Positions 26,026-45,274 of a stretch of DNA of 64,000 nucleotides are shown here, one piece after another. The position numbers were made by a program, and so were the translations under genes. Source of the DNA: Candidatus Omnitrophota bacterium (GTDB lineage: Bacteria > Omnitrophota > Gorgyraeia > 1-14-0-20-64-10); NCBI GenBank assembly GCA_023248155.1, contig JAHFFE010000001.1, positions 314,603 through 378,602 on the forward strand, given 5' to 3'. Within the stretch, counting starts at the first letter, position 1, and each line of letters opens with the position of its first letter. The notes under the pieces are model-generated. The model was not told the origin of the DNA and did not search any database. It saw only the letters and a program-made list of their open reading frames with translations.

Positions 26026-26033
26026 AATCAATC

Positions 26034-26096
26034 GTTAGTAGTAGAAAACTTCGCCGTTATTTTTATTGACAAAAATAACAACCCCAGCGCTATAAT
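26034..26096 (+). promoter_or_regulatory. Sigma70-like promoter with conserved upstream box
   Basis: gttagtagtagaaa (26034), TTGACA (26066), TATAAT (26091). The 19-bp spacer is long. Confidence 0.65.
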
Positions 26097-26215
26097 GGCA
26101 AATAACCTTGAATTTCGCAGCGGTCTTTTTTTGTCCGTCATTTTTTACAGATTTAGATAAGATCTGAGACAGCTTTTATGAACCCATATAAAAACTCGGC
26201 CAGATAAAGGAAAAA

Positions 26216-29200
26216 GTGATGCGGACAAATTTAAACCAGTTCCTGGCCGCCCTGCTTCTCGTTGGTCTCTCTTTCGCGAATATTTCTCCCGTCCCTCAGC
26301 TGTTCATGGTGAGTTTATCGAACCATACTCTGCGTGCCGTTGGTTTAGAGGAAGGCACCCAAAAGAATTCTTTATCTGACGCTTTAAAAAATAATGCCTC
26401 CGGATTAGAGGAAGCGGTTGTTTTGGACGCGTCGGTTCCTTATCAATATCCCTGGCGGACTGCCGAATTCGACGAGCTTTGGCCAAATGCCGATGATCGT
26501 GATCCCAAGCTGGAACGCTTTCAAAGATTGTTCAACCAGGATTTGGACGGCCATCCGGAAGGGGAGATTCAGCTCACATCGCCCAACGGAAACCCCGATG
26601 AGTTGGCCCGCTGGATTGCTGAAAACAATATGACTCCGCAGCGGGTTGCCGAAAGCATTGAATGGATCCATAAGATGCACCCCTACGATAAGGAACGGTT
26701 TATCTCTCTTCAGCAGTTGCCCAGCATTCAGGCGTTTCTTGCCGCTCATCCGGAAGCCCGTTTCAATTTAATCGGCGTCCGCGAAGATGAGAGCAAGGTC
26801 GGTTCCTTCAAAATCGGCCAGTATATGGATGAATATCTGCAGAAGATCCTCAAAGCCGGCCATCGAGGAGATGTAAATTTCCCGGGCGCCGTGATGTACT
26901 CCTCGGGAAACGCCATTCAGGGAGATGTCGAGACATTGGCCTGGCTCAAAGAGCAGGGGTTGGTTCCGCAAGATTTCAAGATCACAATGGTGGCAATGGC
27001 TTACCTGAAACCCAAAAAGCGGAAAATGATCGAGGATTTTAAAAAGCGGGGATTGGTTGACCGAATTGTTACCCCCGAAGAAATTGCCGCCGAGTATCTT
27101 GCCGATTCAGAGGGGGGCAGCGTACCGGTTCAGCATCAGGACTTGGCGGTTGATCCCGTGGCGTTGGATGACATCAATCAGGTTTTGAAACTTTTGGATT
27201 GGTGGTCGGAGAAACAGGGCCGGGCCCATATTTACGCTTCCAACAGCTTAAGCGCCGTCGTGGGCGGGGCCAGAATCTACTACGATATTAATCGGGCATT
27301 TACGCAGGATCGTGAATACCTGCAAGCGTTGTTGGGGGATGCCGCCGAAACTTTGCCGGCTCAGCCCGATGGTATTGTCATGCCTGCCGCGGGCGGCGGA
27401 CCGTTCGGGGGAATACCGTTTTGGGCGCGCCAGCTTGGGCATGCCACCAAAACCATCGGACCGATCCCCACCATCCGGACCGGCAGCATCGCGGAAGGTC
27501 TGGGCATTCAGATGATTCAGGAACTCGCGCGCAATCTGGCCCGTTTATTGGGAGTAAATCAGATGCAGCTTACCGAGGTATCTGAGCGGGCTATTCTAAA
27601 AGCGTTTGTGGAACTGCATGACGCCGGAATTGAAGTGGAGCCCAGCTCTGCCATCGCCTACGCGCAGGTGCTGTACCTGATGGAAAACAAACCTGAATTT
27701 TTCTCTCAATTTTTGGCTGAGAACGGCCGGCCGATGACGCTGGTGGCCATATTAACCGGGCGCAATTTTGAACCATCGGATGCCGCCTGGGCTTGGGCGA
27801 AGGTTCAAGAGCTTCGCCTGAAGGAGCCCCATGCCCTCAGAGCCGATCCAACCCAAAGGCAGGCGGCCGTTCCTCCGGCGAATGGGCTGCAGCAGGTTGT
27901 CGTTTTGAGTTCAGGCACCGAGCAGGCAATGGGCAGAGCGCTGCGCCAGGCGGTAATCGATTGGCGCGCGTCCCAGCCGGCAAATCTGAAACCAACCGTA
28001 ACGGCTGTCTACAATCCTCCCAAAGATCTGGATTGGCTTAAAAAGATAAAACCGGATGTCATTCTTGTGGCGGCTACTGCCGAAGAAGCCCAGCAGGATG
28101 GTTTACTAAGGAATGCCATCACAGTTCTTGGCGATGCCGGCGTTCTCATTCGTTATGTTCCTTTCCCCAGCAAGGTAGCAAGATCTTTGAATCCGCTGGC
28201 AAAATCTCTGCCAGGGAAGCTTCTAAAAATCGGCGAGCTGTTTCAGGGAGGGGATATTTTGGTGGATTCGACAACCTCCAAGCCCCGTTTTCGGGTAGTT
28301 GCCGACCAAGCAAACACCATCAGCGCTGTTTCTCTCCAACCAATTGATGAGCAGGGCAATTCCGCGGGGCCGGAAACCGCTGTCCCCGTCGCGGATCTAC
28401 GCCTGCGTTTTCAAGTGGTTCGCGCCGGCTTAGAGGAGCAATTGCTCACCGTTACGGTTCCTCCAAGCCAGCCGGTTTGGCTCACGGCGGCAGATGGAAT
28501 CCAATTGCTGGAACGGTTGCTGCAAGAAGGGGAGTCCCGCTCGATTTACTCTGTTAAGCACGGGGCTGATTTTCTTGTGCCTCGTTACAGAGCGGTAGTT
28601 TCAAAAGAGGGAGGTGTCATTAAAGTCCGAACAGTCGGTAAATTTTCGATGTCACTTGAGTTCGTCATGACGCGCGTCGAGGGTTATTTTATCGTGAAGC
28701 CGGATGGAAACATCTTCGTTATTGATGCCGAAGATGGAAACCAGAGAGCGAATATTTATTTGCGCAAGAATTTTTCGACTATTTCCGTTGATTCTCTCGC
28801 GCCTGCCGCTGTCGAGGGCTGGGTTCAGCGACCTTCCGCGGAAGAAGCGGCGGCCTATATCCGGGAGCTTGTTCCACAAGGCGTTTCTGCTGTTCAAATG
28901 GGAGACGCTGAACATTCTCCGGAATCTGACCGTTTGGTTGATGATCTCACTCAGTTTCAGGGGGGAGCTGGCAGCGGCCGGATTTTCTATTTGAGAAGGT
29001 CCAACCAAAATGTAGAGGTGTTGGCGATCACTGCGATGGATTTTGACGCCAGATCCATTGGGGAGTTCCATCAATTGCCGATGGGTGAGTTGTTGAAGAA
29101 GATCGCTCAGCTGGGAGCGAACTGGTTCGTCCAGGTCGGTTTTTCGAATTCGGCAGCGCGGGTATATGCGACAGACACCTCTGGTTTGCAGAGACTTTTG

Positions 29201-31267
29201 CGTGGATATCCCAATACGACGGGTTTCTACGCCCTGTCCCTTCGCGCAAATCAGACTGCTTTCGTGAGCAACAGCTCGAATCCCAATTCTTCCGGATTGG
29301 AGGAAGATTTTCGAGATGCTTTCTCGGATGGGATGGCCGCTCAGCATTATTTGGACCAATTGGCGGGTTTTGCCGATATTGTTTTATTGAATCAAACCCA
29401 AGAGGCTTTGGGTAGAGTCGACGCCCATTCAAGGGATTATCTGGATCCGAAGGGAATTTATCCTTCCACCAGAGAAATTATTCCCAAGTACGCTCAAGCC
29501 AATCCTGTCGAATTAGACAGTGCTCATCGCGAACGGTTGAAAGAATTTCTTTTTTCGGTTTGGGAGAACGAGCGCCGTATGCGGAACGAACCGCAAGGTT
29601 CTGCTCGAACAGGCAGGCCAGTGGTTGATGTGGAGTCAGCCATGCTTCCTGAACTCATAGAGCAGGGACGTGCTGCTCAGCGGCTGGCGTTGTCTGGCGG
29701 GCTGGAAGAGCGGGTGAATCTTTTGGTTATTCGGGATTCTAATGACGCGGCAACCAAACAAGCGCTGCTAGGTATCGTTCCTGGCTGGGCTAAAACAAAA
29801 GCTTCGCAGGAAATCGATGTGGTTTCTTACGGCACCCTGGATAAGGGGCTTGCCGCCTCGCCTAAGAAAGGCCGATGGAGCGGGATCCTGATGTTGCGGC
29901 ATGTTGCGACTGAAGCCGATGTCGATGAGATTGAGCGCCAGATTACCGGCCTTAAGCCCGTTTCGGATTCTGCGGCGATACCGGTTGCGCTGATCGTCTA
30001 CGCGTCGGACCAAAAAGTATACGAAAAACGGTTGCTGGGTTCGCTGCAACTCCTCAAAGGAAGCCAGGGTATCGTCACATTTTTTGTTCATCGTTTATGG
30101 CAAGACAAACCTGCTTCTCAGCCCGCCGTCGCGGATTCACCGGAACCCACAGCGAAACCGGCAGTGCCGCCGGCAGGAGTCTTCACGGGAGTTCTGGATC
30201 AATTGCTGGACTCCGCGGCTAAGTACGCTGTGGCTGTCGGTCTGGAAGAGCGGGGAGCGCTGCTTCCCGATGTTTTCTTTCGGCGTCCAGGGTTCCAGTT
30301 CCTTATGGAAATGGGAAGAGCAAAAATCCTGCCGGCGGATTTCGATGTCCGGGATAAATCTCTTCAGGTTCGAATCGGCCGGATCGTAGGCCGCTGGGGG
30401 TTCAGCCGTTGGCTGGAAGAACTCCCGCTGGCAAAGGTTCTTGAGAATAGCCCCAATGGGCACAATGACCTGGCCGCGGTGGAAGCGTTTATTGCAAGGG
30501 CACAAAATATTCCGCCGGATTATTTTGGGATAGCGGCAGGAACCACCCAGTGGTCGCCCAAGAAGACGCCTTCTTGGCCGGCGGTTCAGCCATTAGTGAT
30601 CGAGGCGGTAGCGGGTGCTCGTCAAAATAAAAATTTCGAATTACAGTACACCCCTGCTGCGGTAAGCGAATCGGATGTGACTGATCAAAGCGACGGTAAA
30701 ACCTACCATCATGTTGAAATAGTTTCGCCTCCGAAAATTCAGCTTCTTCCTGCCGCCGGGCTGGAGGAATGGACCGTTTCCGATCTGTTCTTGCGCGAAG
30801 TGGTTACCACGCACAATTTTTACACGCGATTTGCGCAAGAAGACGGTTCCCAGCTGATTGTGGTGCCGATGGGACAGAATAAAGTTAAGCCGGCGAATCT
30901 TTATTTGCAGGAGGGGCTTGAGAATCCCATTTCGCGCCTGGTTCCAAACCCTGTTCGTCTGGGAAGAGAAAAGGAGGACGTTCGGGGGCTCTTCCGCCAA
31001 AACCCCGCGGGTCCCAACGATGTCATTGTTCTCAACTCCGATATAGTGAGGGGTGATCCGTTGTCCTGGTTTTCAGCGGGCGGCGCGAATACTCAATATA
31101 AGGTGCGTATTTCACCGGCGTTAGCCATGAAATTCAACAATGATCTGGATACCCGATTCATGGAAGTGGTCGCGTTGGCCGCGCGGGTGGGTAATGGAAT
31201 GTTATTGCTGGACTACACGTATCAGGCGGTGGATGACCAGGTGTACTTGATCCTGCGCTCCGCGTAA
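26216..31267 (+). CDS. GxEE-family modular exported protein 2 (7 GLEE motifs) with a PLP threonine-dehydratase-like module
   Basis: Signal peptide, HTLRAVGLEE. GSFK, SSGN, MPAAGGG, SIAEGL, VEPSSA, ILTGRN. Ends VYLILRSA. Confidence 0.88.
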   Translation: MMRTNLNQFLAALLLVGLSFANISPVPQLFMVSLSNHTLRAVGLEEGTQKNSLSDALKNNASGLEEAVVLDASVPYQYPWRTAEFDELWPNADDRDPKLERFQRLFNQDLDGHPEGEIQLTSPNGNPDELARWIAENNMTPQRVAESIEWIHKMHPYDKERFISLQQLPSIQAFLAAHPEARFNLIGVREDESKVGSFKIGQYMDEYLQKILKAGHRGDVNFPGAVMYSSGNAIQGDVETLAWLKEQGLVPQDFKITMVAMAYLKPKKRKMIEDFKKRGLVDRIVTPEEIAAEYLADSEGGSVPVQHQDLAVDPVALDDINQVLKLLDWWSEKQGRAHIYASNSLSAVVGGARIYYDINRAFTQDREYLQALLGDAAETLPAQPDGIVMPAAGGGPFGGIPFWARQLGHATKTIGPIPTIRTGSIAEGLGIQMIQELARNLARLLGVNQMQLTEVSERAILKAFVELHDAGIEVEPSSAIAYAQVLYLMENKPEFFSQFLAENGRPMTLVAILTGRNFEPSDAAWAWAKVQELRLKEPHALRADPTQRQAAVPPANGLQQVVVLSSGTEQAMGRALRQAVIDWRASQPANLKPTVTAVYNPPKDLDWLKKIKPDVILVAATAEEAQQDGLLRNAITVLGDAGVLIRYVPFPSKVARSLNPLAKSLPGKLLKIGELFQGGDILVDSTTSKPRFRVVADQANTISAVSLQPIDEQGNSAGPETAVPVADLRLRFQVVRAGLEEQLLTVTVPPSQPVWLTAADGIQLLERLLQEGESRSIYSVKHGADFLVPRYRAVVSKEGGVIKVRTVGKFSMSLEFVMTRVEGYFIVKPDGNIFVIDAEDGNQRANIYLRKNFSTISVDSLAPAAVEGWVQRPSAEEAAAYIRELVPQGVSAVQMGDAEHSPESDRLVDDLTQFQGGAGSGRIFYLRRSNQNVEVLAITAMDFDARSIGEFHQLPMGELLKKIAQLGANWFVQVGFSNSAARVYATDTSGLQRLLRGYPNTTGFYALSLRANQTAFVSNSSNPNSSGLEEDFRDAFSDGMAAQHYLDQLAGFADIVLLNQTQEALGRVDAHSRDYLDPKGIYPSTREIIPKYAQANPVELDSAHRERLKEFLFSVWENERRMRNEPQGSARTGRPVVDVESAMLPELIEQGRAAQRLALSGGLEERVNLLVIRDSNDAATKQALLGIVPGWAKTKASQEIDVVSYGTLDKGLAASPKKGRWSGILMLRHVATEADVDEIERQITGLKPVSDSAAIPVALIVYASDQKVYEKRLLGSLQLLKGSQGIVTFFVHRLWQDKPASQPAVADSPEPTAKPAVPPAGVFTGVLDQLLDSAAKYAVAVGLEERGALLPDVFFRRPGFQFLMEMGRAKILPADFDVRDKSLQVRIGRIVGRWGFSRWLEELPLAKVLENSPNGHNDLAAVEAFIARAQNIPPDYFGIAAGTTQWSPKKTPSWPAVQPLVIEAVAGARQNKNFELQYTPAAVSESDVTDQSDGKTYHHVEIVSPPKIQLLPAAGLEEWTVSDLFLREVVTTHNFYTRFAQEDGSQLIVVPMGQNKVKPANLYLQEGLENPISRLVPNPVRLGREKEDVRGLFRQNPAGPNDVIVLNSDIVRGDPLSWFSAGGANTQYKVRISPALAMKFNNDLDTRFMEVVALAARVGNGMLLLDYTYQAVDDQVYLILRSA

Positions 31268-31282
31268 AGGCCCATTGAAAAT

Positions 31283-31343
31283 GTTAGTCGTAGAAAGTTT
31301 CATGATTTAAATGTTGACATTTTTGCACTTTCTCAGGTATAAT
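31283..31343 (+). promoter_or_regulatory. Sigma70 promoter with conserved upstream box
   Basis: gttagtcgtagaaa (31283), TTGACA (31314), 18 bp, TATAAT (31338). Confidence 0.75.
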
Positions 31344-31353
31344 TTTCACAATA

Positions 31354-31389
31354 CGCTGGTTTTGTCTTCCAAGCCAGCGGCTCTTTTTT
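31354..31389 (+). terminator. Terminator-like hairpin in the 5' leader
   Basis: cgctggtt...agccagcg stem followed by gctcttttt, between promoter and start codon. Confidence 0.45.
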
Positions 31390-31453
31390 ACCCTGCATTT
31401 TTACTTATTTTGGATAACTTAAACAAAGCAAACATTCGGGAGGAATACAAGTA

Positions 31454-34400
31454 ATGCGATTTGATTTCCTGCGCTCAATCTCGGTGGTAGTCCTGTCTGT
31501 TTTTTCTCTGTCGTCTGTTTCTCCTGCATTTGCTCTGCGTGCCGCCGGCTTAGAGGAAAACGCGGAAAAGGGTACGGTCACCAGGAGGCTTCTTGAGGGC
31601 AACCGCGGAAATTTTTCGGGCGGTCTGCAGAAAAACTCCACCTCCGGTCTGGAAGAGATCCGGATCCTGCTGGTGGCGGTTTCTGACGAAGCTCTCGCTA
31701 AAAAAATGGGAGAGATGGCACAGGCCTGGCGTTCGGAGTTGGACGTAAGAATTGTTCACACTGCAGACGAGGCTCAGGTTTATCTGAAAGCGCAGCAAAA
31801 TCCAAGGCCGGATGCGGTCATCTGGGAATTATCCACAATGGGAACCGAGACGCTCATAGATCCAAGCCAGCTTTCTTTCAATGTACCCGTGGCTCTGGTA
31901 GGCGAGGGGGCGATGGGCGTGGTTGGAGAATGGATCGCATTGTTCAACAACCGTCCCGTTCCTGCCCCTTTTCAGGAGACTCTTCAACAAAAAGCCAAGA
32001 AGGATGGGTTTTCGAGAACTGCTCGCTTGTTATTTGGTGATGATCTAGTAAACAGGCGGCCCCTGCGGCTCCTGAGGGGAACTGAAAATTATGAGTTATC
32101 TGCTTTCACGCATAATCTGGACATACTGAATAGGGATTTCAGGAGCCGTTCCGCTGGGCTGGAGGAGGCGTGGGATCGCGACACCGCGGACAGTTGGACG
32201 ATTTTAAGTGGTACAGTTTCCACCCAACTTATCCAGCAGTTGCTTCAACAAACTCCCGCGCCGGCAATCACCGATCTGGGCAATTTTTACTGGACCAAGG
32301 GAACGCTTTCACAATTGACTCCCGGCATGGTGAATAACATTTTGAATGTTGCACCGTCGCGTCACCTATTGGCAATCTCGAATGGACAGGTTGCCTTGAT
32401 TCGTCAGGGAGAATTGGAATCGGCCGACCAGGACGGTGCGAAAGATGCAACCAATTGGTATGGGAAATTGGCGACACGCGCCGAGACAGTGCTGACTCCT
32501 CAGCATTTACAATCCGCCGGCTTGGAGGAAACGCCCGCGCAAGTCATCGCCAAGCAAAAAGCGATGGCAGTCATTGCAGTTCCCAGTGTTCAAGTTGCTG
32601 CCGGTATCGGTGCAGTGGTTGCGTACAAGGGAATAATTCCCGAAATTACATTTCGGGGGAATGAAGCCGATGTTTTGCAGGCGATCAATGCACTTTTCGG
32701 TCTGTCGTCGAGCAAGCGAATGCCGGTAGCGGCCGGATCTGTATTGACGGCCGATCAGGTGGAGAAAGCTGTACGGGCGGGTGCTAAGATTATCGTCAGC
32801 CCCGGCTTGATTGATGAAGTTATTCTCAAGGCCCAGGAATTGGGAGTTTTGGTAATCCCAGGCGTGGCATCGATGTCTGAGGCAAAAACAGCGGTCGAGG
32901 TTTACGGCCTTTCACTGTTGAAATTTTTCCCATTCTCTTTTGTCGATCAGGCTGATTTTATCAAATCAATCAAAGCGCCATTGCCGCCAAATCTTCAGGC
33001 CGTGGTGGACGCTAAGGTAACATGGGGAGATTCCGGAGAAGTCGCCACATTTACAAAAATTCTTGAATTTGTCCTGAGTAATCCGACAGCATCAAAGCAA
33101 TTCCAGCTTCCCAAGAAAAAAGGATTGGAAGCGCTTCATCAATTGGGCGTGAATCCGGCAGTTGCCAATGCGCAGTTTATTCCAACCGGTGGTATTACGC
33201 CGGAGATGATCCCGCAGTTGATAGGGAAGGAAAAGATCGTCGCGGTAGGTTTATCCATCGGCGGAGATAATCCGGCGGTTCTTGCGAAAGCCGATGCTAT
33301 TGCGAAAGCGGTTGCGCAGATTGCTGGTGCCGAGGAGGGAGTGGTTGCCGTTGTTGCATCGGAAGATAATTTTCAGGCAGTCGCTGGTTATGTGCGTAAG
33401 TATGCGATTGGGCAGGGCAGAAAAGCCCCTCAAATGGTTCACCAGCATTTTGATGATGCTCGGCAGAATGCCAGTCGCGGTTTTGTGACTGCCATCGTGG
33501 CGATTTTTCCAAGCGCGGATGCTGATCAAATTGCGTGGATCGAAAGAACCAAAGAACTTGCTCCTAACGTTCCAATCGCCGTGATTTATTCCGGCAATGG
33601 AAACGAGGTTCGCCGCGTCTCAACTAAAGCACTGAGCAGTAGAGAGTTGAGCCAAGATGCGGTTGGTGAAATGGTTTTCTCCCTGCTTCCCACCGCTGGT
33701 GCGGAAGAATCAACCGTGCTTCTTCCAACCCCGCAAAACTCGTTTCCTGCAAGTCGAGGAGCTGTCTCTCCGGACGGGGATTCACTATTAGCGTTGAAAG
33801 AGACACCGGAGGTTCGCTGGGCAACGATGGTGGGCCGTACGGAAGGGTTTTCTTCGGGGCGATCTTCCGACGGTTTGGTTCACGCGCAGGGATTGGTGGA
33901 TCGTCTGGAGATCAAAGCCGGATTTACAACTGGCATTGAAAATGAACTGAATATTGTCGAATCGTATCGAGCTGGGCAATATACGCTGGCGATTCTCGGA
34001 GCACCCGTTGCTACAAGCGCTAGGCCGATTATCCAAGGTTTTAAGTATGAGGTTACAGGTGCTCCTGGGGTTAATCGCGTACTGACACTTTCCGTTGATC
34101 AAAACGCTGTTTCCCCTAAGGTAATAAATAATCTTGTCGCTCAAAATTTACCATCAGGCAGCCCAAAACCGTTGACGGTTGTTATCGAAGCCGCCGCTGG
34201 TCTCGAAGAGACGGTTTACACGGGCATTGACCAGGTTGTAGCGGCGATTACTCAACCTGAAGGCGAAGACAGCATCCGGGCTCTTGTCTACTCTCTTCCG
34301 GATGGAACAGAACAACGCGCGGTTCTTGCCCCAGGTGAATGGACTCCTGCGCAGGCGGTTCCCGGTGCTTTTCAAGCAATGGAACTCCGTCCTGTTTCCG

Positions 34401-37225
34401 GCAGGGTAACAATTACTATTAGTGGAAGCGATGTTGTTCTCCGCAAAGCGCCTGAGGAGCCAGTAATTGTTGCTCCGGTTAAGACTGCTGTGAAACTTCC
34501 GTTGACGGCGCGGCTGGCCAATATGTTTGGCGTATTCCGTTTCTCGGTGGACGCCACGGACAACATCAGCAATGAATTTGTTGATTATGTCGGTTCTGTG
34601 GGTGGTGATAAAGGGACGCTGAACCCATCCTCTGTCGGGAAATCCGCGGAGACCGGGCAGATGAATTCGTTGGTTCGTGAATTTGTTTCTTCTACGGTAA
34701 GAGGCGCGAATCTGCTCTGGCAATTGGTCAAGCGGCATGTCAGCGCGGTTTTCCTTCCCCGCGTGGAGACCAGTGTTGAATTGGATCCAACCGTTCCCTC
34801 GGTTTACGCGTTGACATTGGATGGTAAAAATCCTGTGGTTGTCAAAAAGAGCGAGGAAATCGTTGTTGACGAGATCGCTGTTGTTGTTGACAAGATCGTT
34901 GTTAAGGAAGAGTTCCAGGCCATTGTCGGCAAGAAGACCTTGAAGCCGGGCGAAAAACTGACGCCCGCGCAGGCGCGTCAGGTCCATAGCTTAATGGTTC
35001 GGCAATGGGTGGCGCAGGCGCTCGAAATCCATCGGCTGGGTGACAAAGCGACGGTAAAAATCGGCCACACGAAGTCGTTGACGCCCATCATGGGCGATTG
35101 GGGCGTGCGCGTTGGGCTGGATGTGCTGCATATTTTGTCGGTGCTGGGCATTCACCGCAACTTCACGCTGGGTTTTACCGAAGAAGATGCCAATCTGGCA
35201 TTGCAGGCCGACCGCGTCGTGCAGGCGGAGCTGGACGCGGTGAAAACATTGGATCTTCAGACAGTTTCTGCGGACCAGGTCATTTCCGCGCTGGACGCGC
35301 TCTATACGCCGGAGATTCGAGGGGATTTCAAGAATGACCCTTTGCCGCTGGGTCTCTTAGACAAAACTTCTCCGGTCATTCTTCCGGGCCAGCGCGCGGC
35401 CAAGGGCTACCGTCCGGCCGGGCGTTCTTATTTCAGTTTGTTCGCAAGCCGGGTCGATGCCAAGGTGAACAGCGCTGAATGGAAGGGAGAGTTTACCGAC
35501 GATCAGCAGAAATATTTTGGCATCGTGAACTTGCTGTATGTCATGGTGACGCATTACAACGATCAGGTTCCCTGGAATAAAGCCCATGGTCAGGTCGTGA
35601 TTCCGGCCAGTTTGGAGCCGAAAGTGGCCGGTCAGCCGGGTGATTTCTACTTTACTCCGCTGGTGGGTTGGGGGTATCAGGTTGTGCCGACCGCCTCTAA
35701 AAAAGTGATCGACGCGTTTAATGCTCGGACAGTGACCGATGAAATTACCGGTCAAGAGCGAGAGCTCAGTGAGGCGGAGCTATATGAAATCGCAATGCGG
35801 ACCCAGAGAATGAAGCAGGACTACGCGGATAAATTGGCCGCGCAAGGGCCGTTGTCTCCGGTCATTGATCAGGCCGCGGCGATCGATGTAATTGCCAAGC
35901 GTTTCGTGCAGGAAGGGTTTTACGCTGATTTTGACACGGCCCGCGCTGTGGTTGAGAGCATCGTTACGTACAGGCAGAATAATCCGCAGGGCTACGACAA
36001 AATGATGAACCAGTTGTATCCCGAGGGGGATGATAAATTTACCGGCCCGCATCTGCTCGGTGTTCAGAGCGTGAACCAGAAAATTGAGGTGGTGGCTGCC
36101 AACCGGCAGAGCGCGCAATTGGTTGGTACGCTTCGGGAAATCAACTATGTTCCCACGAGAATCCTCAATGAAACAGGCAGCCAAACGGTGCTTGATAACT
36201 TAACGGATGTCGCTAATTTGTTGGAAAGCGACGATTCCGCTGTTGTAGCGTTGAGTCTGGCTGAAAATTTGTTGATTGTTCGTACCGGCAAAGTGGAAAG
36301 CATCGCTCTTGCGCAGGCCGATCTGTCGGCTTTGTTGTCTCTTGCGGGACCATTGGCTCCGCTGAAAGTTGCTGCACAACAAAGAGCGGAAGCAGAAGCC
36401 AAAACCGCTCTGCAGAACGCGTTTGGAACTTTACCGTTGGATACCGCCGGCACGCGTGTTTATTCCGGCCCGGCCGCTCTGCGCCAGTTGTCGGAACTGT
36501 TTTCCGGAGATGTGGCGGTGATTGGGGCCAGATACGAAGAAGGGAACCCGGCGTCGGTTATTACTACCCCGCGGAACACGGCCCGTCTTTCTGTGAGCGC
36601 TAATCCGAACAACTATCTGGTGATTCAAGCTCCTTCCGGCCAGTTAGCGCTTGTGCGCAAAGAGGAATTGGAATCCAAGGATAGGAGAGCTACAGCTGAG
36701 GCGGCTGCTAGAGCTAAAACCGCTGTTCCGGGTACCGGTGGCGAGGTTATCGCCCCGGTTGCGCCGACATTGCTGGAGCGGATCGTTGCCAAAGTGGGTG
36801 TTCCGATCACTGCAACGGTTGTCAAACTCGATGAAAAGCAACTGGATCTTCCGTCCAGGCTATGGCTGCACAATGGTTTGTTGCAGCCGAGCTTCATTGC
36901 TAGGGAACAGATTACCGATCTCCCGGCTGACAAAGCGGGTGTTGTGGCTGTCTGGTCTGGCAAGCAGGCCCAGATTCAATCCACCGACCTGGTTCTACTC
37001 AACGCCAACACGGTTCCTTCGGCGGAAGTAGATCAGTGGCTGGTAGGATTGCCCGCGGATCGCAAACCGGTTGTTTTACGGCTTTCAAACAATGACATTA
37101 ATATCGCCAGGAATCAGAATATTTTGGCTGCGTTAATCGAGATTGCCCGGCAACAGGGCGGGTATCTGGATGTCATCGGTATGACCTACGATCCGGCTAC
37201 GCAGGTGTTGTCGGTCCAGGCTTAA
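31454..37225 (+). CDS. GxEE-family modular exported protein 3 (7 motifs) with KDPG-aldolase and transaldolase modules
   Basis: SPAFA-LRAAGLEE. Eda motifs PEITFR, IIVSPG, LKFFP, PTGGI. Tal motifs VDA, TLNPS, SVELDP, TVKI, NFTLGF, SLFASRVD. RBS GGAGG. Confidence 0.9.
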   Translation: MRFDFLRSISVVVLSVFSLSSVSPAFALRAAGLEENAEKGTVTRRLLEGNRGNFSGGLQKNSTSGLEEIRILLVAVSDEALAKKMGEMAQAWRSELDVRIVHTADEAQVYLKAQQNPRPDAVIWELSTMGTETLIDPSQLSFNVPVALVGEGAMGVVGEWIALFNNRPVPAPFQETLQQKAKKDGFSRTARLLFGDDLVNRRPLRLLRGTENYELSAFTHNLDILNRDFRSRSAGLEEAWDRDTADSWTILSGTVSTQLIQQLLQQTPAPAITDLGNFYWTKGTLSQLTPGMVNNILNVAPSRHLLAISNGQVALIRQGELESADQDGAKDATNWYGKLATRAETVLTPQHLQSAGLEETPAQVIAKQKAMAVIAVPSVQVAAGIGAVVAYKGIIPEITFRGNEADVLQAINALFGLSSSKRMPVAAGSVLTADQVEKAVRAGAKIIVSPGLIDEVILKAQELGVLVIPGVASMSEAKTAVEVYGLSLLKFFPFSFVDQADFIKSIKAPLPPNLQAVVDAKVTWGDSGEVATFTKILEFVLSNPTASKQFQLPKKKGLEALHQLGVNPAVANAQFIPTGGITPEMIPQLIGKEKIVAVGLSIGGDNPAVLAKADAIAKAVAQIAGAEEGVVAVVASEDNFQAVAGYVRKYAIGQGRKAPQMVHQHFDDARQNASRGFVTAIVAIFPSADADQIAWIERTKELAPNVPIAVIYSGNGNEVRRVSTKALSSRELSQDAVGEMVFSLLPTAGAEESTVLLPTPQNSFPASRGAVSPDGDSLLALKETPEVRWATMVGRTEGFSSGRSSDGLVHAQGLVDRLEIKAGFTTGIENELNIVESYRAGQYTLAILGAPVATSARPIIQGFKYEVTGAPGVNRVLTLSVDQNAVSPKVINNLVAQNLPSGSPKPLTVVIEAAAGLEETVYTGIDQVVAAITQPEGEDSIRALVYSLPDGTEQRAVLAPGEWTPAQAVPGAFQAMELRPVSGRVTITISGSDVVLRKAPEEPVIVAPVKTAVKLPLTARLANMFGVFRFSVDATDNISNEFVDYVGSVGGDKGTLNPSSVGKSAETGQMNSLVREFVSSTVRGANLLWQLVKRHVSAVFLPRVETSVELDPTVPSVYALTLDGKNPVVVKKSEEIVVDEIAVVVDKIVVKEEFQAIVGKKTLKPGEKLTPAQARQVHSLMVRQWVAQALEIHRLGDKATVKIGHTKSLTPIMGDWGVRVGLDVLHILSVLGIHRNFTLGFTEEDANLALQADRVVQAELDAVKTLDLQTVSADQVISALDALYTPEIRGDFKNDPLPLGLLDKTSPVILPGQRAAKGYRPAGRSYFSLFASRVDAKVNSAEWKGEFTDDQQKYFGIVNLLYVMVTHYNDQVPWNKAHGQVVIPASLEPKVAGQPGDFYFTPLVGWGYQVVPTASKKVIDAFNARTVTDEITGQERELSEAELYEIAMRTQRMKQDYADKLAAQGPLSPVIDQAAAIDVIAKRFVQEGFYADFDTARAVVESIVTYRQNNPQGYDKMMNQLYPEGDDKFTGPHLLGVQSVNQKIEVVAANRQSAQLVGTLREINYVPTRILNETGSQTVLDNLTDVANLLESDDSAVVALSLAENLLIVRTGKVESIALAQADLSALLSLAGPLAPLKVAAQQRAEAEAKTALQNAFGTLPLDTAGTRVYSGPAALRQLSELFSGDVAVIGARYEEGNPASVITTPRNTARLSVSANPNNYLVIQAPSGQLALVRKEELESKDRRATAEAAARAKTAVPGTGGEVIAPVAPTLLERIVAKVGVPITATVVKLDEKQLDLPSRLWLHNGLLQPSFIAREQITDLPADKAGVVAVWSGKQAQIQSTDLVLLNANTVPSAEVDQWLVGLPADRKPVVLRLSNNDINIARNQNILAALIEIARQQGGYLDVIGMTYDPATQVLSVQA

Positions 37226-37241
37226 CAGAACGGAGAGAAAA

Positions 37242-40200
37242 ATGCGGTTTAATTATCTGCGAACAATTTCGGCAATCGTTCTGACTGCTTTTTCTCTGTC
37301 AGCGGCTACGCCTATGCCTGCGTGGGCTTTGCGCGCCACTGGCGCCGAGGAAAGCGCCACCCAGCCTATTTTGGCTCGCGCGCTTCAATCCGGCAATAAA
37401 GGTAATTTTGTCCGCGGAGTTGATTCCCGCTTAGTTGCCGCTGGTCAGGAAGAGAATGTTCATGTGCTGGGTATTGAGGGCAAGCCGACCAATTCCCGCG
37501 AGGGTCTGACCGCTTATGACAACCAGCCCGATTTGCAAACGGCGGTCCGTGCTTACGTGCAGGCCTCGTCCGTTCTGGTGACGATTACGTCCATTCAGCA
37601 GAGAGATGGAACAACGGATGAGTTTCTTGGAAAACCGTTTGTTTTTGAAACCTATCGTTTTGCGCCAGGAAAAGATCCTCTCGACCCTAAAGATGGCAAT
37701 TGGGGCGGCATGACCTGGCAACTGCGCCGTTTTTCTATTCGATTAAACGGACTTAGTCGGGTGGGCAGCCCTCTTCCGAATATGTCACACACGCTGAATC
37801 GGTTTCGCTTAATTGAAACATCGCCGGGACAACTTGTCATCGAACCAGTTTTTGACGCGGCGCTTGCGCCGCGATTGAAGACCCTTTTGCCCGATGTGGC
37901 TTTAGAGACGATTCAGGGTTGGTTATCAAAGGGCCAATACGCGCAGATCCTTTCTTTAGCTGAGAGTGGTGCTAACGAGAGAACAGATACTCGGAATCTG
38001 ACGCAAATCCGGAATATGCTCAATGCCATGCTGGATGTTTCTTCCGCCGCTGGGGCCGAAGAGAGATTTGAGGTTTCTGTCCGCAGTACGAGTGATGGCA
38101 CTGAAAACTTCGATCGAATCGAGCTTATGTCCAGGAGCGAAGAAACAGATCGGTTAGCGAATGCACTGGGCTTGATTAAAGGGCGTTCCTTGCTTTTGAT
38201 ACGCCAAAAGGCGCCGACTACCGCCACGGAGGCATTTCCCTTTTTTGCCGTGTCCGATGGGGCAAAGGTGATTCTTTTGTCCGGGGCTGGATCCGATGGC
38301 GCGCAGCTTTGGCGTTCCTATGCGGAAGAAAAAATAAAACGAAGCATAGTTTTTTCATCTATGCGGTCATTTCGTACTTTAGAAAGCCCCGTTAATGTTC
38401 AAATTAGTTCTCCCCTGAGTATTCCTCAATATGATCTATTGCAGGTAACGATCTCTGCTGGGCAGGAAGAAAAGTGGTCGAATCCGTTTATGGGTCCAAA
38501 CCGCGTCAATTTAATGTCTGGCGATTACGCGGCAAAATGGATTTCGCAAGGCGTCTTGGCTGCGAAAATTGCTTCTGTCGCGGTTCATCCGAAAGAGGGT
38601 TCTCCCGTTACGCTTTCGCTGAATCAAGTCAACACAGCTCGAAAATTGCTTCGCCAATTTAAACGCGACGATTGGGTTAATGTGTCCTGGGCAGAAAACG
38701 GTTCCGCTCGGGGAGAAATTCGTGTTGATGTCCGGCCCGTTGATGTTTTGTCCGATGGGATGCCTGTTCCGCCCGTTGGCGAATTTACCAGCGTAATCGG
38801 TTATCTGACCATTACGACGACCCCTTACACCGCGGCCAGGGCCATAGCAGCATCCGCGGCAGAGATTGCTTCCGTTGAAACTCTAATTTCTTTTACGAGT
38901 GACCCCGGCTATTGGAGCGGTTATGGCCACGCAAGCACCGATTGGAACGCCGTGGCTGAACAGCATGCCAAGGTCTATGTGGCTGCCGGCCTGGCTTCAA
39001 TAAATCCGGCTATTTTATCGGCCAAAGTTCAGTTTCTGGCGAATCTCGAACCGCTATTTCTCGCTGGGCAGGAGGAAACTTATTTCTATTCTCCTGCTGG
39101 GGCTACGCTCAAGTCCAACGATCAGACGCAGCCCGATCTTCCTATCGCTGTTGGGGATGTCTTCCGAATTTATCTGGCTCAGAAGCGAGTCAAACCCGAT
39201 GATCGCAGCGACGAGACTTATCTGCTTCGGCTCATGGAGAACGGGCAGCTTGCTCTAATGGAACGGCCGCCAGCCGGCAGAACATTCAGTGAAATGACCG
39301 AAAACGAAGACCAATTTGTTCAGTTGGCCATCGGCTGGGATCAGGCACATCAGCGGGGTGAGCGGGTGACCATAAATACCCTGTATGGACCCGTGAGCAT
39401 TTCACTGAACGCGGGAAAAACCCAACTTGCCTTCGAGCATGCTTTCCGAGAGGAAAATATAGAGGAACGCATTGGCTCTAAAGTAAATATTTATCCTAGC
39501 TCTCTCTACGACCTCGGCTTCAATCGCCTTATTCCAGCTGTTGGGTTGCCCGCCGTCAGGGATTTTAAAGCCGCTTATCGCCGTTTCTATAAGAATCAGC
39601 AAAACGGAGACGCCGCCGCGCGGTTAGAAGCGGCCCGCGTAGCTTTAGTGGTGCTGGCCAATACGGAAGATCAGACACGGTTTCGTGCGGCCTATGCCTC
39701 TTTTGAAAAGGCTCTTTTGAATGAGCTGCAAACGGCTCCTTACACTCTTGTCAAGGGCGTTCCGGGTTTCGATAAACCGATTTTTGCAATAGATTATGTG
39801 AGTCACACCCAGCGTCAGCTCGTCGATGAACTCACCGCGATTCGATCCCTTTCAAATGCCGCCGGGGCGGAGGAAACTTACCGCAACTACGATTCCAGCG
39901 GTTGGCATGTCACATTACCCGCAGGGCAAGCCGTCGCGCAGCCGGTTACGGTGGCTACTAATCCGGGAGATATTCTGCTTCTGCAGTGGGCGCCCCAAAT
40001 TCCGAATCAGGAAAATAGGCTGTTCGCGCTGGTTCGGGTTTCTGATGATGGAAAAGAAATTTCCGTCTTGGATCAGCTCGATTCGCAATTCAGATTGAGT
40101 AGTTTTTATCGGGCGGGTGTTCAGGGTATGACTGGAGCAGAAGTGCCTGGCGATGTTATCCGGAGCGTGGAGTGGGGACCGGCCGCTTCGGAGGCGAGAA

Positions 40201-42056
40201 TTTCTGAGGCTGGAATTTCTTTTCAGAGCAATCCCAATAATTCGTTGAGTGTTACCCTGTCGTCGAATAATTATTTAGTTGTTTCCCGTCTCCAGCCGGC
40301 CGCCGGCGCTGAGGAGAAACTGATACTTTCCCGTTCCGAACTGCTGGATCGTGTGGAGGCTTTAGCTCAGATACAACATACGGGAGGCGGGTATGCCATC
40401 GGCCGGGTGGGGTATCTTCGTGCTGGAGAGGTAGTGCCGATCGAGGTATCCCGGGCAGGCATAGACCAAGGGGAAATTCCGGGAATTATTCCTGCAATGA
40501 CGAATCGATTAATTGCTCGGATCGAATCGCTGCGAGATGGCCGACACGCTTTGCAAATTCAGAGTTCATCAAATGGCGGCCAATTTGCAGTAACTCCGCA
40601 CGGGCTTCAGGTTCAGAAATTTTGGGAGTTACAGCAGATTCACGCCGGATACCCGTTGGAATATTTATCAGATCCTTCCATATTACAGGGTAACAACAAG
40701 GTTGCCGTCACGCGCAATGGCCGCCCGGTTAATTTTGCCGATTATGAGCGGCTTCAGGATCAATTGGTGGGGGCGCCGGGACAAGCATTGCCAATGACCC
40801 TGCTGATCACCGCCCAAGGGGTTGAATTGGTTCCCGCTTATCTTGTTTCGAGTGGCCAGCCGGCAAAGGTTCAAGGTCTTTTTGAACTTGAGGTGGCCCC
40901 GGAATTTACAGCGCCTCCTTCAGGACAATTTCCCCTTATTAATGAAACCGTTTTTGTAGAGCGTTTAGCAGAGGTTCCGAATAATCCTTTTGATTTGGCG
41001 CTTGGGTTCGCTCCGGAAGCCCCCGTTCGTTTATTCCGCCTGCTGGATTCGCCGTTCTCTGTGGCAACGGATGGCAATCGTGTTGTTTATTTCTCCCCGG
41101 ATGCCGAGCCATTGGCGAGGGCCGTGGCGAAGGCGGGAAATATCTCGACAGTTCTCTCCGCGTCGAAAGATCTTAAATTGCGAATCAGAATTGAAACGCC
41201 TGATCAAACCCAATCGGGTGATAAGTTACTGGTATCGGTTCAAGAAGCTCGTGCCGGTGCGGAGGAAAACTGGAATAATCTGGCGCCGAATGAAAAACAT
41301 CCGGTTTTTGTCGGCCAGGCCGTGCAATGGATTTCCGCGGCGGGTGAGTCAGGGAAAGTGGCCGGCATCCGCGTGGGCAATGACCCAAGCCAGGAAGCCG
41401 TTCTGTTGGCGAATCAATTTTCTAACCCGATTGCGCTGGAGCGTCAGTTTAATTCGGTCGCGATGCAGGGGAGCGTTGGCTTGTTGTGGCGCCCTGCGGC
41501 GGGAACCGCTGTCGGCTCTGGAATGATCGCGCTGGAAATTTCTTCTCCGGAAGCCGGCGCCGAGGAAGGCGTCACGCGCCTTTCTGCGGAGGAATTGGTT
41601 GGCCGGGCAATGCTTTCGGATGAAGAGGGTGTCGTCCAGTTCTCTTCCGGAGACTTGGTTATTCCGATCAGCACTAATTTGCCGACTACCGGAACGCTGT
41701 ATCATCAGCCGGGGCTGGCACTGCCGAATATCGACGGATTGAATCAGGTTGTTATTGCCGGCAGCGCGGTCGATGTTCAGAAAATCTGGGATCAAACGCC
41801 TCCGATACCGGGTGATTTGGTCATGCTCAACAACGATACCGTTGGCGACGGGTACAAAGACTTTCTGCCGACTGTGTTGGTAGAGGGCGCTCTCTTTTTG
41901 CGTGTTAGTGCCGCAGCGTCGGCCAAGCTGACACCGGAACTGCTGGCCGGTATCCTTGCGGTTTCTCAGCAGCTAGTAGGGCAGGTACTGTTGATTAATG
42001 ATCTGGAATATGTCACCGTAGAAAATCAGACCTACGCGGTTCTGCGCTCGGCCTAA
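37242..42056 (+). CDS. GxEE-family modular exported protein 4 (9 motifs, modules unassigned)
   Basis: PAWA-LRATGAEE. Motifs near 37341, 37443, 38052, 38460, 39066, 39864, 40305, 41256, 41556. Ends TYAVLRSA. Confidence 0.88.
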   Translation: MRFNYLRTISAIVLTAFSLSAATPMPAWALRATGAEESATQPILARALQSGNKGNFVRGVDSRLVAAGQEENVHVLGIEGKPTNSREGLTAYDNQPDLQTAVRAYVQASSVLVTITSIQQRDGTTDEFLGKPFVFETYRFAPGKDPLDPKDGNWGGMTWQLRRFSIRLNGLSRVGSPLPNMSHTLNRFRLIETSPGQLVIEPVFDAALAPRLKTLLPDVALETIQGWLSKGQYAQILSLAESGANERTDTRNLTQIRNMLNAMLDVSSAAGAEERFEVSVRSTSDGTENFDRIELMSRSEETDRLANALGLIKGRSLLLIRQKAPTTATEAFPFFAVSDGAKVILLSGAGSDGAQLWRSYAEEKIKRSIVFSSMRSFRTLESPVNVQISSPLSIPQYDLLQVTISAGQEEKWSNPFMGPNRVNLMSGDYAAKWISQGVLAAKIASVAVHPKEGSPVTLSLNQVNTARKLLRQFKRDDWVNVSWAENGSARGEIRVDVRPVDVLSDGMPVPPVGEFTSVIGYLTITTTPYTAARAIAASAAEIASVETLISFTSDPGYWSGYGHASTDWNAVAEQHAKVYVAAGLASINPAILSAKVQFLANLEPLFLAGQEETYFYSPAGATLKSNDQTQPDLPIAVGDVFRIYLAQKRVKPDDRSDETYLLRLMENGQLALMERPPAGRTFSEMTENEDQFVQLAIGWDQAHQRGERVTINTLYGPVSISLNAGKTQLAFEHAFREENIEERIGSKVNIYPSSLYDLGFNRLIPAVGLPAVRDFKAAYRRFYKNQQNGDAAARLEAARVALVVLANTEDQTRFRAAYASFEKALLNELQTAPYTLVKGVPGFDKPIFAIDYVSHTQRQLVDELTAIRSLSNAAGAEETYRNYDSSGWHVTLPAGQAVAQPVTVATNPGDILLLQWAPQIPNQENRLFALVRVSDDGKEISVLDQLDSQFRLSSFYRAGVQGMTGAEVPGDVIRSVEWGPAASEARISEAGISFQSNPNNSLSVTLSSNNYLVVSRLQPAAGAEEKLILSRSELLDRVEALAQIQHTGGGYAIGRVGYLRAGEVVPIEVSRAGIDQGEIPGIIPAMTNRLIARIESLRDGRHALQIQSSSNGGQFAVTPHGLQVQKFWELQQIHAGYPLEYLSDPSILQGNNKVAVTRNGRPVNFADYERLQDQLVGAPGQALPMTLLITAQGVELVPAYLVSSGQPAKVQGLFELEVAPEFTAPPSGQFPLINETVFVERLAEVPNNPFDLALGFAPEAPVRLFRLLDSPFSVATDGNRVVYFSPDAEPLARAVAKAGNISTVLSASKDLKLRIRIETPDQTQSGDKLLVSVQEARAGAEENWNNLAPNEKHPVFVGQAVQWISAAGESGKVAGIRVGNDPSQEAVLLANQFSNPIALERQFNSVAMQGSVGLLWRPAAGTAVGSGMIALEISSPEAGAEEGVTRLSAEELVGRAMLSDEEGVVQFSSGDLVIPISTNLPTTGTLYHQPGLALPNIDGLNQVVIAGSAVDVQKIWDQTPPIPGDLVMLNNDTVGDGYKDFLPTVLVEGALFLRVSAAASAKLTPELLAGILAVSQQLVGQVLLINDLEYVTVENQTYAVLRSA

Positions 42057-42060
42057 AACT

Positions 42061-45000: not shown

Positions 45001-45177
45001 CTCGATCCGCAGATTCCGGTTTTAATCATGGGAGAAATGGCCGCGCAAAACTGGAATAAAGATTCGCTCGCTTACCTGGTGACGCTGGCTGCTCATTCCC
45101 GCGGAATTTTGTTTATCCGCCAGATTACTTATCCGACGGTAAACGAACGGGAGTTTGTCGCTATCCGGTTCGTCTAA
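42061..45177 (+). CDS. GxEE-family modular exported protein 5 (4 motifs) with a probable beta-propeller module
   Basis: PVYA-LRGAGAEE. Beta-rich blade-like segments at 42250-43290. C-terminal LYIQDDL..VVILNS..WLP..FVAIRFV. Confidence 0.85.
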   Translation: MKKTDWFKISGFLGLALLLAVPAPVYALRGAGAEESLEKTDLTRALSRAGNRGYLKRAAGLEETPWTIIGRGEGTPVAMALDDSGDALVLSRIAAGELRLQRISPAGKAEPITPVPSLAVPMPPGSGGDPANPSAASVFAILPFRDQVLVTDGGQQFYPIEISSLGQTVPDLQSAAKPVPLANVSRIDQMIVRPSDGMLIIVDKQGDDAASKSNSIVRLFDVKQMPPVVREAVGVGEPVVTAPAVARNRLYLAQSFPLSPAAAVPAGTGTQTQREIRIRGFNISNGGDGSVETLRIQGPKTFVRSDVAGLAAGLVDGKPFLFSLESRQRKGPGVEAAQPLRLAVYSLENQAQVGFFDLPANVRQITYDSKNSQVLLAAGGAPESNSYQITAAPVAQLIPAVQQRPVSGSGLEEAPQPPPAQRTQGIHSRLARIFIEGVLARYTPSGNENSDFTVKYFGETEDESLLFNPELFLGVVRKSQVSHHVWVNVNPATKIIEVHPVQIREELKKPVILLDSQNTVNFILNAALPEPVLGVAYREAGHLQVLSGALLGNASLLPRILQMVNISQTILFLKEPFEIPANSDAEQSAQKGFLLRLAYVPSQRSLRAVAWRTIDQFVQEFSGFAKAGQASVLYYHTPAGVYLLEGPENLQNADFLRAAAEQVASGSYVLASKEGADGKEFHLYAPEFAGLEETAVAENALPSISSRPVISSPSGFSTTVAGPVFPAYSAVISAAGNGPSASANSVSSLAVSVSSPLNAPAVIEPVTGERAPEPVVFSTVEEVIAYLNALPDDQPVIVGGVEIPSLRDTLFPVKLDELARNNPGQNFLIRPAGPGAVLRVDLQAPVRTLSATELFGDTTAVSVRFDLAEASDAMIAAQIAQANKLGQPVQISRSGEFAAVFEKTPTLSPSVLYIQDDLDLPQDMSESDGTVDVRRIPADPELAQEFWELQQTLLPGSVVILNSNLLANQRLDPRQWLPANLDPQIPVLIMGEMAAQNWNKDSLAYLVTLAAHSRGILFIRQITYPTVNEREFVAIRFV

Positions 45178-45274
45178 TCATCCTCGCAGTGGTTAATCAA
45201 AATATAGTCTTTGATATTCTGTATTGATTTTTAATAAGCTCATTGGGTATAGTTCGTATATAGACACAAAAACA

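Follow-up and report, generated by a model that had tools for sequence, protein, structure and literature searches.

A predicted exported, cysteine-free Omnitrophota protein carries KDPG-aldolase-type and transaldolase-type modules that keep their catalytic residues

The window, a 64,000-nucleotide stretch of contig JAHFFE010000001.1 (assembly GCA_023248155.1) from a Candidatus Omnitrophota bacterium whose 1.9 Mb genome is 98.5% complete, contains an open reading frame (ORF), P0001, that encodes a 1,923-residue protein. We find that P0001 comprises at least eight modules, punctuated by seven G-x-E-E motifs, and that it joins a predicted Sec signal peptide to a module of the 2-keto-3-deoxy-6-phosphogluconate/2-keto-4-hydroxyglutarate (KDPG/KHG) aldolase family (Eda) and to a highly divergent transaldolase-like (TAL) module. 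Homologous proteins are labelled P0002 to P0005, P0007 and P0008, and G069, G211 and G087 denote giant proteins in genomes of the phylum. The features that carry the argument are as follows.

31454..37225, + strand: P0001, whole ORF, 1,923 aa, 0 Cys
31438..31444, + strand: Shine-Dalgarno-like GGGAGGA, 9 nt upstream of the P0001 ATG, read from the sequence
31454..31537, + strand: predicted Sec signal peptide, residues 1-28, called by rule (Kyte-Doolittle hydropathy KD11 2.66, two Arg before the core, A-F-A site)
32516..32530, + strand: linker motif AGLEE, residues 355-359, N-terminal border of the Eda module, coil in the AlphaFold2 (AF2) model
32531..33322, + strand: Eda-like TIM barrel, residues 360-623, with Glu397, Arg401, Lys490, Thr578-Gly579-Gly580 and Ser601
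32981..33166, + strand: Eda insert, 62-aa alpha/beta, residues 510-571, between the Lys strand and the T-G-G loop
33323..33337, + strand: linker motif AGAEE, residues 624-628, C-terminal border of the Eda module, read from the sequence
34499..36133, + strand: divergent TAL-like module, residues 1016-1560, with Asp1033, Asn1057, Glu1109, Lys1202, Asn1236/Thr1238 and Ser1328/Arg1333

The N terminus of P0001 appears sound, because the open frame reaches just 12 codons 5' of the ATG (1,935 aa) and GGGAGGA stands at 31438-31444. It reads MRFDFLR-SISVVVLSVFSLSSVSPAFA-LR, with a basic n-region, an 11-residue core (KD 2.66) and SPAFA ahead of LRAAGLEE. The initial annotation had proposed a signal-peptide-type N terminus, and simple rules (a basic n-region and a hydrophobic core, with an optional A-x-A site) bear this out. 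With the A-x-A rule added, cytoplasmic PurA, SerA, ClpP and Tig are negative, and OmpA-like, peptidoglycan-binding and LptC/A proteins are positive. Export finds independent support in topology and composition. A hydropathy scan of the whole chain reveals no transmembrane segment beyond the signal, the sole internal segment with KD19 ≥ 1.6 (residues 370-391) being the first strand and helix of the Eda barrel, and the chain past residue 28 has a pI of 5.4 and a mass of 203 kDa.

P0001 belongs to a family that we define by x-A-L-R after the signal, G-[LAQM]-E-E within about 35 residues, [AS]-G-x-E-E borders and near-zero Cys; its own head reads AFA-LR-AAGLEE. Genome-wide, 40 ORFs with an 'x-A-L-R ... 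G-[LAQM]-E-E' head amount to 68,209 aa, or 11% of the crude proteome. A basic n-region and hydrophobic core are present in 39 of these 40 proteins, and 38 pass when the A-x-A rule is added, versus 392 of 1,568 other ORFs. The family contains only 31 Cys (0.045%) versus 0.91% in the remaining proteome, and this depletion is specific to it, since signal-rule-positive ORFs outside the family contain 0.73% Cys (1.19% in the remaining ORFs); P0001 and its five neighbouring paralogues, 8,166 aa together, have none. Stand-alone Omnitrophota Eda proteins contain 1.34% Cys, and the residue before the G-G loop is Cys in 16 of 26 of them and Thr in all four embedded copies; the housekeeping TAL of the genome, which lacks a signal, contains three Cys. 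The genome also encodes four secretins as well as TolC-like proteins, which point to an outer membrane, and therefore to a diderm cell with routes across that membrane. Taken together, the N terminus, topology and composition predict that P0001 is exported via Sec.

An Eda-like module with PEITFR, LKFFP and PTGGI had been placed between AGLEE and AGAEE by the initial annotation, and all of these elements are found there. Glu397 (PEITFR, 396-401), Lys490 (LKFFP, 489-493) and Thr578-Gly579-Gly580 (PTGGI, 577-581) fall in conserved Eda columns, and we take their roles, as general-base Glu, Schiff-base Lys and G-G phosphate loop, from the E. coli enzyme. The Pfam Aldolase model (PF01081) matches residues 364-510 at 77.2 bits, well above its gathering cut-off of 27.8, as the HMM search proposed at the outset had anticipated. 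A phmmer search of PDB with residues 355-629 finds 45 distinct sequences at E ≤ 0.001 (best 4e38, 4.6e-17), all natural or engineered KDPG/KHG (or 2-keto-3-deoxy-6-phosphogalactonate, KDPGal) aldolases by their listed names. The alignment runs in two stretches (module residues 14-155 and 218-254) with 62 residues left unaligned between them, so that the insert, first put at about 80 aa, is corrected to about 62 aa relative to solved Eda. An AF2 model built from alignment A2 (30 Eda sequences, 26 of them stand-alone) is of high confidence (pLDDT 89.5, pTM 0.90), and with it Foldseek retrieves KHG/KDPG aldolases, with 4e38 at E 1.7e-14 and target-normalised TM-scores of 0.77-0.83 to solved enzymes. 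The insert is folded in this model as a small alpha/beta unit (block pLDDT 89-98). Solved Eda (4e38, 2yw3, 1wa3, 1eua) share with the module the (beta/alpha)8 fold, the Glu, the Lys in 'L-K-F-F-P' and the 'P-T-G-G-I' loop; unlike them, it is embedded in a 1,923-aa signal-peptide protein, carries the folded 62-aa insert, has no Cys and lies on a long branch. Residues 360-623 are thus best described, from sequence and model, as a KDPG/KHG-aldolase barrel that keeps its catalytic residues and is probably active.

PF01081 matches occur in 124 of 300 genomes of the phylum. All rows lie in frames of 201-308 aa save the window's own and four rows in three giants, namely G069 (3,255 aa), G211 (3,880 aa) and G087 (11,858 aa, two copies). 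An Eda tree places four embedded copies on one side of a branch with support 89/77, their long branches being a caveat to that grouping. P0007, a 1,225-aa protein of the AGxEE family, contains an Eda module at 47% identity, with the insert and all catalytic motifs, which ends at the same place as that of P0001, with AAGLEE. The Glu and Lys are kept in P0001, G069, G211, G087 and P0007 at 24-47% identity. The insert, with its 'A-T-F-T..L' motif, is common to the embedded modules of the same five proteins and absent from 26 of 26 stand-alone Eda; no stand-alone Eda with the insert is found among near-length proteins (201-227 aa, and one of 319 aa that is an ordinary Eda).

The TAL motifs named in the initial annotation are likewise all present, at nucleotides 34541-35614, and the proposed HMM check again gives a match, with Pfam TAL_FSA (PF00923) covering residues 1182-1457 at a marginal 31.8 bits (cut-off 27; 34.9 bits in a six-frame genome search). 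Among 1.84 billion representatives, phmmer with this module finds just six proteins, all of 1,923-6,393 aa, and the sole relative from a named genome is in a Candidatus Omnitrophica metagenome-assembled genome. In alignment A1, which contains six TAL modules at 27-92% identity, all six share the first-strand Asp, T-x-N-P, V-E-x-x-P, N-F-T and S-x-F-x-S without change, and five have the Schiff-base Lys. The A1 profile finds only transaldolases in PDB (14 of 14 matches at E ≤ 1; best 3r8r, 7.1e-5), pairing 'natvkiGnt' with 'NITVKIPMT' of 3r8r. An hhalign comparison of A1 with A3, an alignment of seven housekeeping Omnitrophota TALs, gives a probability of 97.2% and an E-value of 4.3e-11 over 254 columns, with Asn1057, Glu1109, Lys1202, Asn1236/Thr1238 and Ser1328/Arg1333 paired with invariant TAL residues; Asp1033 is invariant in the six modules, yet lies just outside the aligned range. 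The seven-sequence template is needed, as hhalign of A1 against the genome's single housekeeping TAL aligns just 62 columns locally, at a probability of 61.5%. When the TAL region was searched against PDB as a single sequence, phmmer produced a chance match only (chalcone isomerase, E 0.027) and no TAL, and this search was set aside. Foldseek with a low-confidence AF2 model finds best matches that are nearly all transaldolases (best E 3.6e-5, TM-scores 0.38-0.44).

Solved TAL/FSA enzymes (PF00923; 3r8r, 3clm, 3s0c) align with P0001 in T-x-N-P, S-V-E, V-K-I-x-x-T, N-x-T-L-x-F and S-x-F-x-S-R-V-D; unlike them, the P0001 module is about 530-545 aa long, with one large insertion following the Glu strand and another separating the NFT strand from the SRVD strand, and identity over the hhalign columns is about 22%. 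PF00923 matches occur in 101 of 150 genomes of the phylum, and eight match rows lie in frames of 1,225-11,858 aa. These comparisons suggest that residues ~1016-1560 are a highly divergent transaldolase with its catalytic residues kept, presumably an active one. Both the Eda and the TAL module belong to lineages found only inside large signal-peptide proteins. As a separate observation, the housekeeping TAL of the source genome (G000:C24:211909-213489, L002) is a long form of about 467 aa that scores 72.5 bits on PF00923, where most Omnitrophota TALs score 200-280 bits; long forms resembling it occur in G041, G107 and G118, and adjoin the G087 giant.

Besides P0001 the source genome contains no other PF01081 match, so that there is no housekeeping Eda copy for phylogeny. 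G6PD (zwf) is not found in the genome, a single gene of the IlvD/Edd family (ILVD_EDD) is present, and none of four family-level relatives has an Eda match, which makes it unlikely that the Eda module completes an Entner-Doudoroff (ED) pathway of the cell's own. Housekeeping TAL and transketolase are present elsewhere in the genome, and malate synthase is not found there.

Related Cys-poor giants with signal peptides combine such modules with further enzymes of carbon metabolism. The G087 giant (C42:124125-159698, L054-L056; 11,858 aa, signal peptide, 6 Cys) contains transketolase, PfkB, Glu/Leu dehydrogenase, PALP, hexokinase, PGM, CofD, UDPGP, two Eda, TAL and PGI domains, the PGI being very well conserved (747 bits), and is followed by a 510-aa TAL-type frame. 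The G069 giant joins its Eda to an FGGY kinase and a xylose-isomerase-like barrel, and in P0005 a class V FBPase adjoins the TAL-like module.

Enzymes of the ED and pentose-phosphate pathways are cytoplasmic proteins. The Eda and TAL reactions need no ATP, metal or free cofactor, and glyceraldehyde-3-phosphate is common to both. The reading that we favour, and put forward tentatively, is that P0001 is a Sec-exported modular multi-enzyme protein in which both class-I (Schiff-base) aldolase-type modules are likely catalytic outside the producer's cytoplasm. Cleavage by signal peptidase would follow Ala28, leaving an acidic 203-kDa chain to fold in the periplasm, at the surface or beyond the cell. 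Cleavage of 2-keto-3-deoxy(-6-phospho) acids to pyruvate and glyceraldehyde-3-phosphate or glyoxylate would be the reaction of the Eda module there, and the transfer of three-carbon units between sugar phosphates that of the TAL module. Because the genome is small and lacks both a free eda and zwf, the most likely substrates would be sugar phosphates of a host or prey cell, whether attached or lysed, from which small importable products would be made. A surface-coat or periplasmic site is possible. A destination in another cell's cytoplasm or lysate, as the initial annotation inferred, would fit the ATP-dependent kinase domains in related signal-peptide giants and also the host-dependent or predatory picture of Omnitrophota in the available text of two published accounts (PMC10066038; bioRxiv 10.1101/2023.11.21.568195).

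Several observations weigh against this reading. The signal peptide was judged by our own rules rather than by a trained predictor. The NCBIfam eda model (TIGR01182) scores 92.8 bits, under its cut-off of 156.05, and just the first two thirds align on account of the insert. Embedded Eda modules sit on long branches (2.13 versus a median of 0.39), which could mean a changed function. For the TAL module, the Pfam score is marginal and the AF2 model poor (pLDDT 57, pTM 0.59). Two relatives look inactivated: the TAL-like module of P0005 (residues 1599-2084) has Thr in place of the Schiff-base Lys and Pro in place of Arg, and the Eda-like module of P0008 (residues 306-503) lacks the Lys and the Arg after the Glu, so that decay to non-enzymes does happen in this protein class. 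Sequence does not tell whether the substrate carries phosphate, and no delivery system is linked to the P0001 gene. Finally, relatives carry cofactor-needing modules (malate synthase in P0002; hexokinase, PfkB and FGGY kinases elsewhere), which fit poorly with a simple location in the periplasm or outside the cell. Modules that depend on ATP, thiamine pyrophosphate (TPP) and coenzyme A (CoA) speak for a place of action that contains cytoplasmic cofactors, and so keep alive both action in a host's cytoplasm or lysate and the contrary view, taken up below, that these proteins work in the producer's own cytoplasm.

Several of the same observations would suit a protein that is exported but whose barrels are no longer sugar-phosphate enzymes, serving instead in a surface coat, for binding or as a scaffold, or acting on non-phosphorylated keto-sugars from a target envelope; we regard this as unlikely, though a serious alternative. 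The long Eda branches, the TIGR01182 score below cut-off, the strong divergence and large inserts of the TAL and the loss of Lys in P0005 and P0008 all favour it, as does the conserved 62-aa insert, which adjoins the active-site face. Surface-layer proteins are usually large, acidic and Cys-free. The G-x-E-E family resembles them in all three respects, and most of its other modules are without an enzyme signature. What speaks for enzymes is the retention, across 27-47% identity, of the Eda Glu/Lys and T-G-G loop and of the complete set of TAL catalytic residues, among them the phosphate-contacting Ser and Arg of 'S-x-F-x-S-R-V-D'; a pure scaffold would have no use for these.

The joints between modules bear on a further possibility, that P0001 is a secreted polyprotein in which [AS]-G-x-E-E marks cleavage or docking sites that release, or hand on, free Eda and TAL after export. 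Free Eda and TAL normally work as oligomers, which speaks for it. Across the 40 proteins there are 173 instances of [AS]-G-[LQAM]-E-E, with A/S in 91% at -1, a small residue at -2 and variable flanks, and the motif lies exposed in coil at module borders. Insertions and swaps of whole modules fall exactly between motifs. In P0003 the homologue of P0001 residues 234-354 directly precedes the TAL module, so the Eda module and two further modules have been inserted between motifs in P0001. P0002 (2,214 aa, 0 Cys) is 80% identical to P0001 over residues 911-1923 and shares its head, TAL module and tail, and differs in its N-terminal half, which has malate synthase (PF01274, 134.8 bits, and PF20659) in place of those modules and no Eda match. 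In P0004 the TAL module is flanked by motifs on both sides. The genome also encodes C39 peptidase domains. No protease is linked to the loci, however; the first motif lies just 3-6 residues past the predicted signal cut, where cleavage would achieve little, and a conserved flexible linker or recombination-tolerant joint accounts for the same data. Processing of this kind is compatible with the exported multi-enzyme reading, to which it adds a step, and we judge it improbable. A still bolder version, in which the released Eda and TAL would act in or beside a captured host and re-route its sugar-phosphate pools to pyruvate and triose phosphate for uptake, strikes us as a long shot; if true, part of a predator's central metabolism would run outside its own cytoplasm.

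We are equally doubtful that P0001 resides in, or faces, the producer's cytoplasm, with its N-terminal stretch an anchor or other targeting signal and its modules part of housekeeping metabolism. P0001 does hold the genome's only Eda domain, the related giants contain ATP-, TPP- and CoA-dependent enzymes, and a recent preprint (bioRxiv 10.64898/2026.06.07.730766) reads, in its main text, many long Omnitrophota proteins as membrane-anchored with their bulk cytoplasmic. Against this, the basic n-region, short core and A-x-A followed by acidic residues predict an N-in/C-out orientation, there is no further transmembrane segment to return the chain, and Cys is 20-fold depleted relative to cytoplasmic proteins. 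There is no G6PD to feed an ED pathway, Eda is found in none of the four family-level relatives, and a normal, Cys-containing TAL is already present. Membrane-bounded metabolic compartments occur in some bacteria of the Planctomycetota-Verrucomicrobiota-Chlamydiota (PVC) group, and Sec-targeted ones are known in Planctomycetota. That P0001 is sent into such a compartment within the producer, either a widened periplasm or a vesicle inside the cell, holding sugar phosphates and cofactors, might explain the roughly 11% of the proteome devoted to the family and the cofactor-dependent modules of relatives, but is very improbable, as it leaves the extreme Cys depletion unexplained, no result of our analysis points to it, and no such compartment is reported for Omnitrophota in the available text of two preprints on the phylum and of PMC10066038.

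Exported giant proteins of Omnitrophota with domains of sugar-phosphate enzymes have been described before. West-Roberts et al. 2023 (bioRxiv 10.1101/2023.11.21.568195) report that Omnitrophota 'Archaeovorins' carry TPI, PGI, FBPase, PGM/PMM and FBA domains in stretches predicted to lie outside the cell, note their rapid evolution, propose a role in predation and allow that the localisation could be wrong; in the text of that preprint as available to us 'transaldolase' is absent, and the only 'aldolase' is fructose-bisphosphate aldolase. Like the Archaeovorins as described there, P0001 is an Omnitrophota protein with a (rule-based) predicted signal peptide and cytoplasm-type sugar-phosphate enzyme domains on the exported side. 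Unlike them, it is 20-40 times smaller, has no detected transmembrane anchor or SecA-like, HEAT or glycosyltransferase domain, and is one of a tandem family of paralogues whose heads read 'A-L-R...G-x-E-E' and whose linkers read G-x-E-E. 'A complete-genome view of phylum Omnitrophota' (bioRxiv 10.64898/2026.06.07.730766) counts 916 long proteins, 94% of which have transmembrane helices or signal peptides; 79 (9%) have a signal peptide only, the class into which P0001 would fall. Its main text does not contain the terms 'aldolase', 'transaldolase', 'linker', 'motif' or 'polyprotein'. Seymour et al. 2023 (PMC10066038) describe, in the portion available, a host-dependent Omnitrophota lifestyle. 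Judged by titles and abstracts, no paper among those listed on secreted KDPG aldolase reports a naturally exported one, and none among those listed for AGLEE-type strings deals with a protein motif.

What appears to set P0001 apart is the combination of a mid-sized, soluble, Cys-free chain, G-x-E-E joints, an insert-bearing Eda and a TAL of strong divergence, each with a catalytic apparatus that looks intact. Two well-studied enzyme families are extended by these lineages, that of Eda with a conserved insert and that of TAL through its high divergence, and textbook cytoplasmic enzymes are placed in a protein whose N terminus, topology and Cys avoidance all point to export, in an organism that devotes about a tenth of its coding capacity to G-x-E-E proteins. 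The work on giant proteins leaves the question of whether, and where, the metabolic domains of exported Omnitrophota proteins are active. At about 2,000 residues, and with two enzyme modules (275 and 545 aa) that lend themselves to separate expression, P0001 is a tractable test case.

The remaining parts of P0001 and its genomic setting are as follows.

31544..31657, + strand: head region with AGLEE (residues 31-35) and SGLEE (residues 64-68), about 61% identical to the P0002 head
31658..32152, + strand: unannotated module, residues 69-233, 36% identical over 107 aa to a P0002 module, no credible Pfam match
32153..32515, + strand: SAGLEE and unannotated module, residues 239-354, 60% identical to the module directly before the P0003 TAL
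33338..34498, + strand: three unannotated modules (residues 629-747, 753-914 and 920-1015), split by AGAEE (748) and AGLEE (915)
36134..37222, + strand: C-terminal region, residues 1561-1923, without annotation; P0002 (80%) and P0003 (58%) conserve it along with the TAL module
22720..47677, + strand: tandem array of six paralogous signal-peptide, Cys-free, G-x-E-E-punctuated proteins, P0001 being the fourth

Pfam searches at E ≤ 1 on seven other P0001 modules return sub-threshold noise only. For the C-terminal region, Secretin_N scores just 17.7 bits, under its cut-off, and ESM Atlas gives no usable match to residues 1561-1923. No link between the P0001 C terminus and the C-terminal domain of its neighbours emerges from jackhmmer or from all-versus-all phmmer with the last 160 aa of the 40 members. 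One C-terminal domain is common to the ORFs at 22720, 26216, 37242 and 42061 and to a 547-aa protein on contig C36; phmmer (E ≤ 0.01) does not detect it in P0001 at 36734-37222. The 40 members fall into at least six C-terminal classes, most ending in a small residue followed by Ala.

The array has a G+C content of 0.49-0.55 versus about 0.55-0.59 in its housekeeping flanks, which comprise KDO and Lpt genes, tig, clpP, serA, purA and an H+-pyrophosphatase upstream, and ROK, an OmpA-like gene, uppS, cdsA, dxr, rseP, ispG, proS, nusA and infB downstream. An ORF at 21896-22459 was considered as a recurrent accessory gene and rejected, the genome holding no paralogue of it. NCBIfam gives no match to the five neighbouring paralogues. 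A search for the ATP/ADP translocase PF03219 is uninformative, as neither it nor its controls gave a match. In the 1 of 64 parts of the collection that was scanned, the three best relatives of PurA in named genomes come from Candidatus Omnitrophota metagenome-assembled genomes, at 63, 61 and 60% identity. Four DNA runs from one groundwater study contain the stretch wholly or partly; no RNA run is listed. Elsewhere in the genome, one uninterrupted open frame at contig C9:149-135115 spans about 45,000 aa, with 37 Cys (0.08%) and two matches to C39 peptidase, and a 9,723-aa ORF on C25 and other ORFs of more than 2,000 aa are also Cys-poor.

Domains recognised in family members of this genome include PP2C, GNAT, alpha/beta-hydrolase, HATPase_c, ARMT1-like, NAGPA, SIS, ROK, GHMP-kinase, WD40 and FHA. 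The neighbouring ORF 26216-31267 (1,683 aa) scores 33.6 bits on PALP, a fold-type II pyridoxal phosphate (PLP) enzyme family, over residues 377-485, where the cut-off is 35. Eda, as a KHG aldolase, and the malate synthase of P0002 both handle glyoxylate, which may be coincidence. The first ORF of the window (1-3105), open at its 5' end, is the C-terminal portion of a family member of 2,436 aa (C20:310397-317707, head 'PAFALRPQ', 1 Cys) with starch/glycogen-synthase-type GT5 and GT1 domains, that is, a sugar-nucleotide-dependent enzyme.

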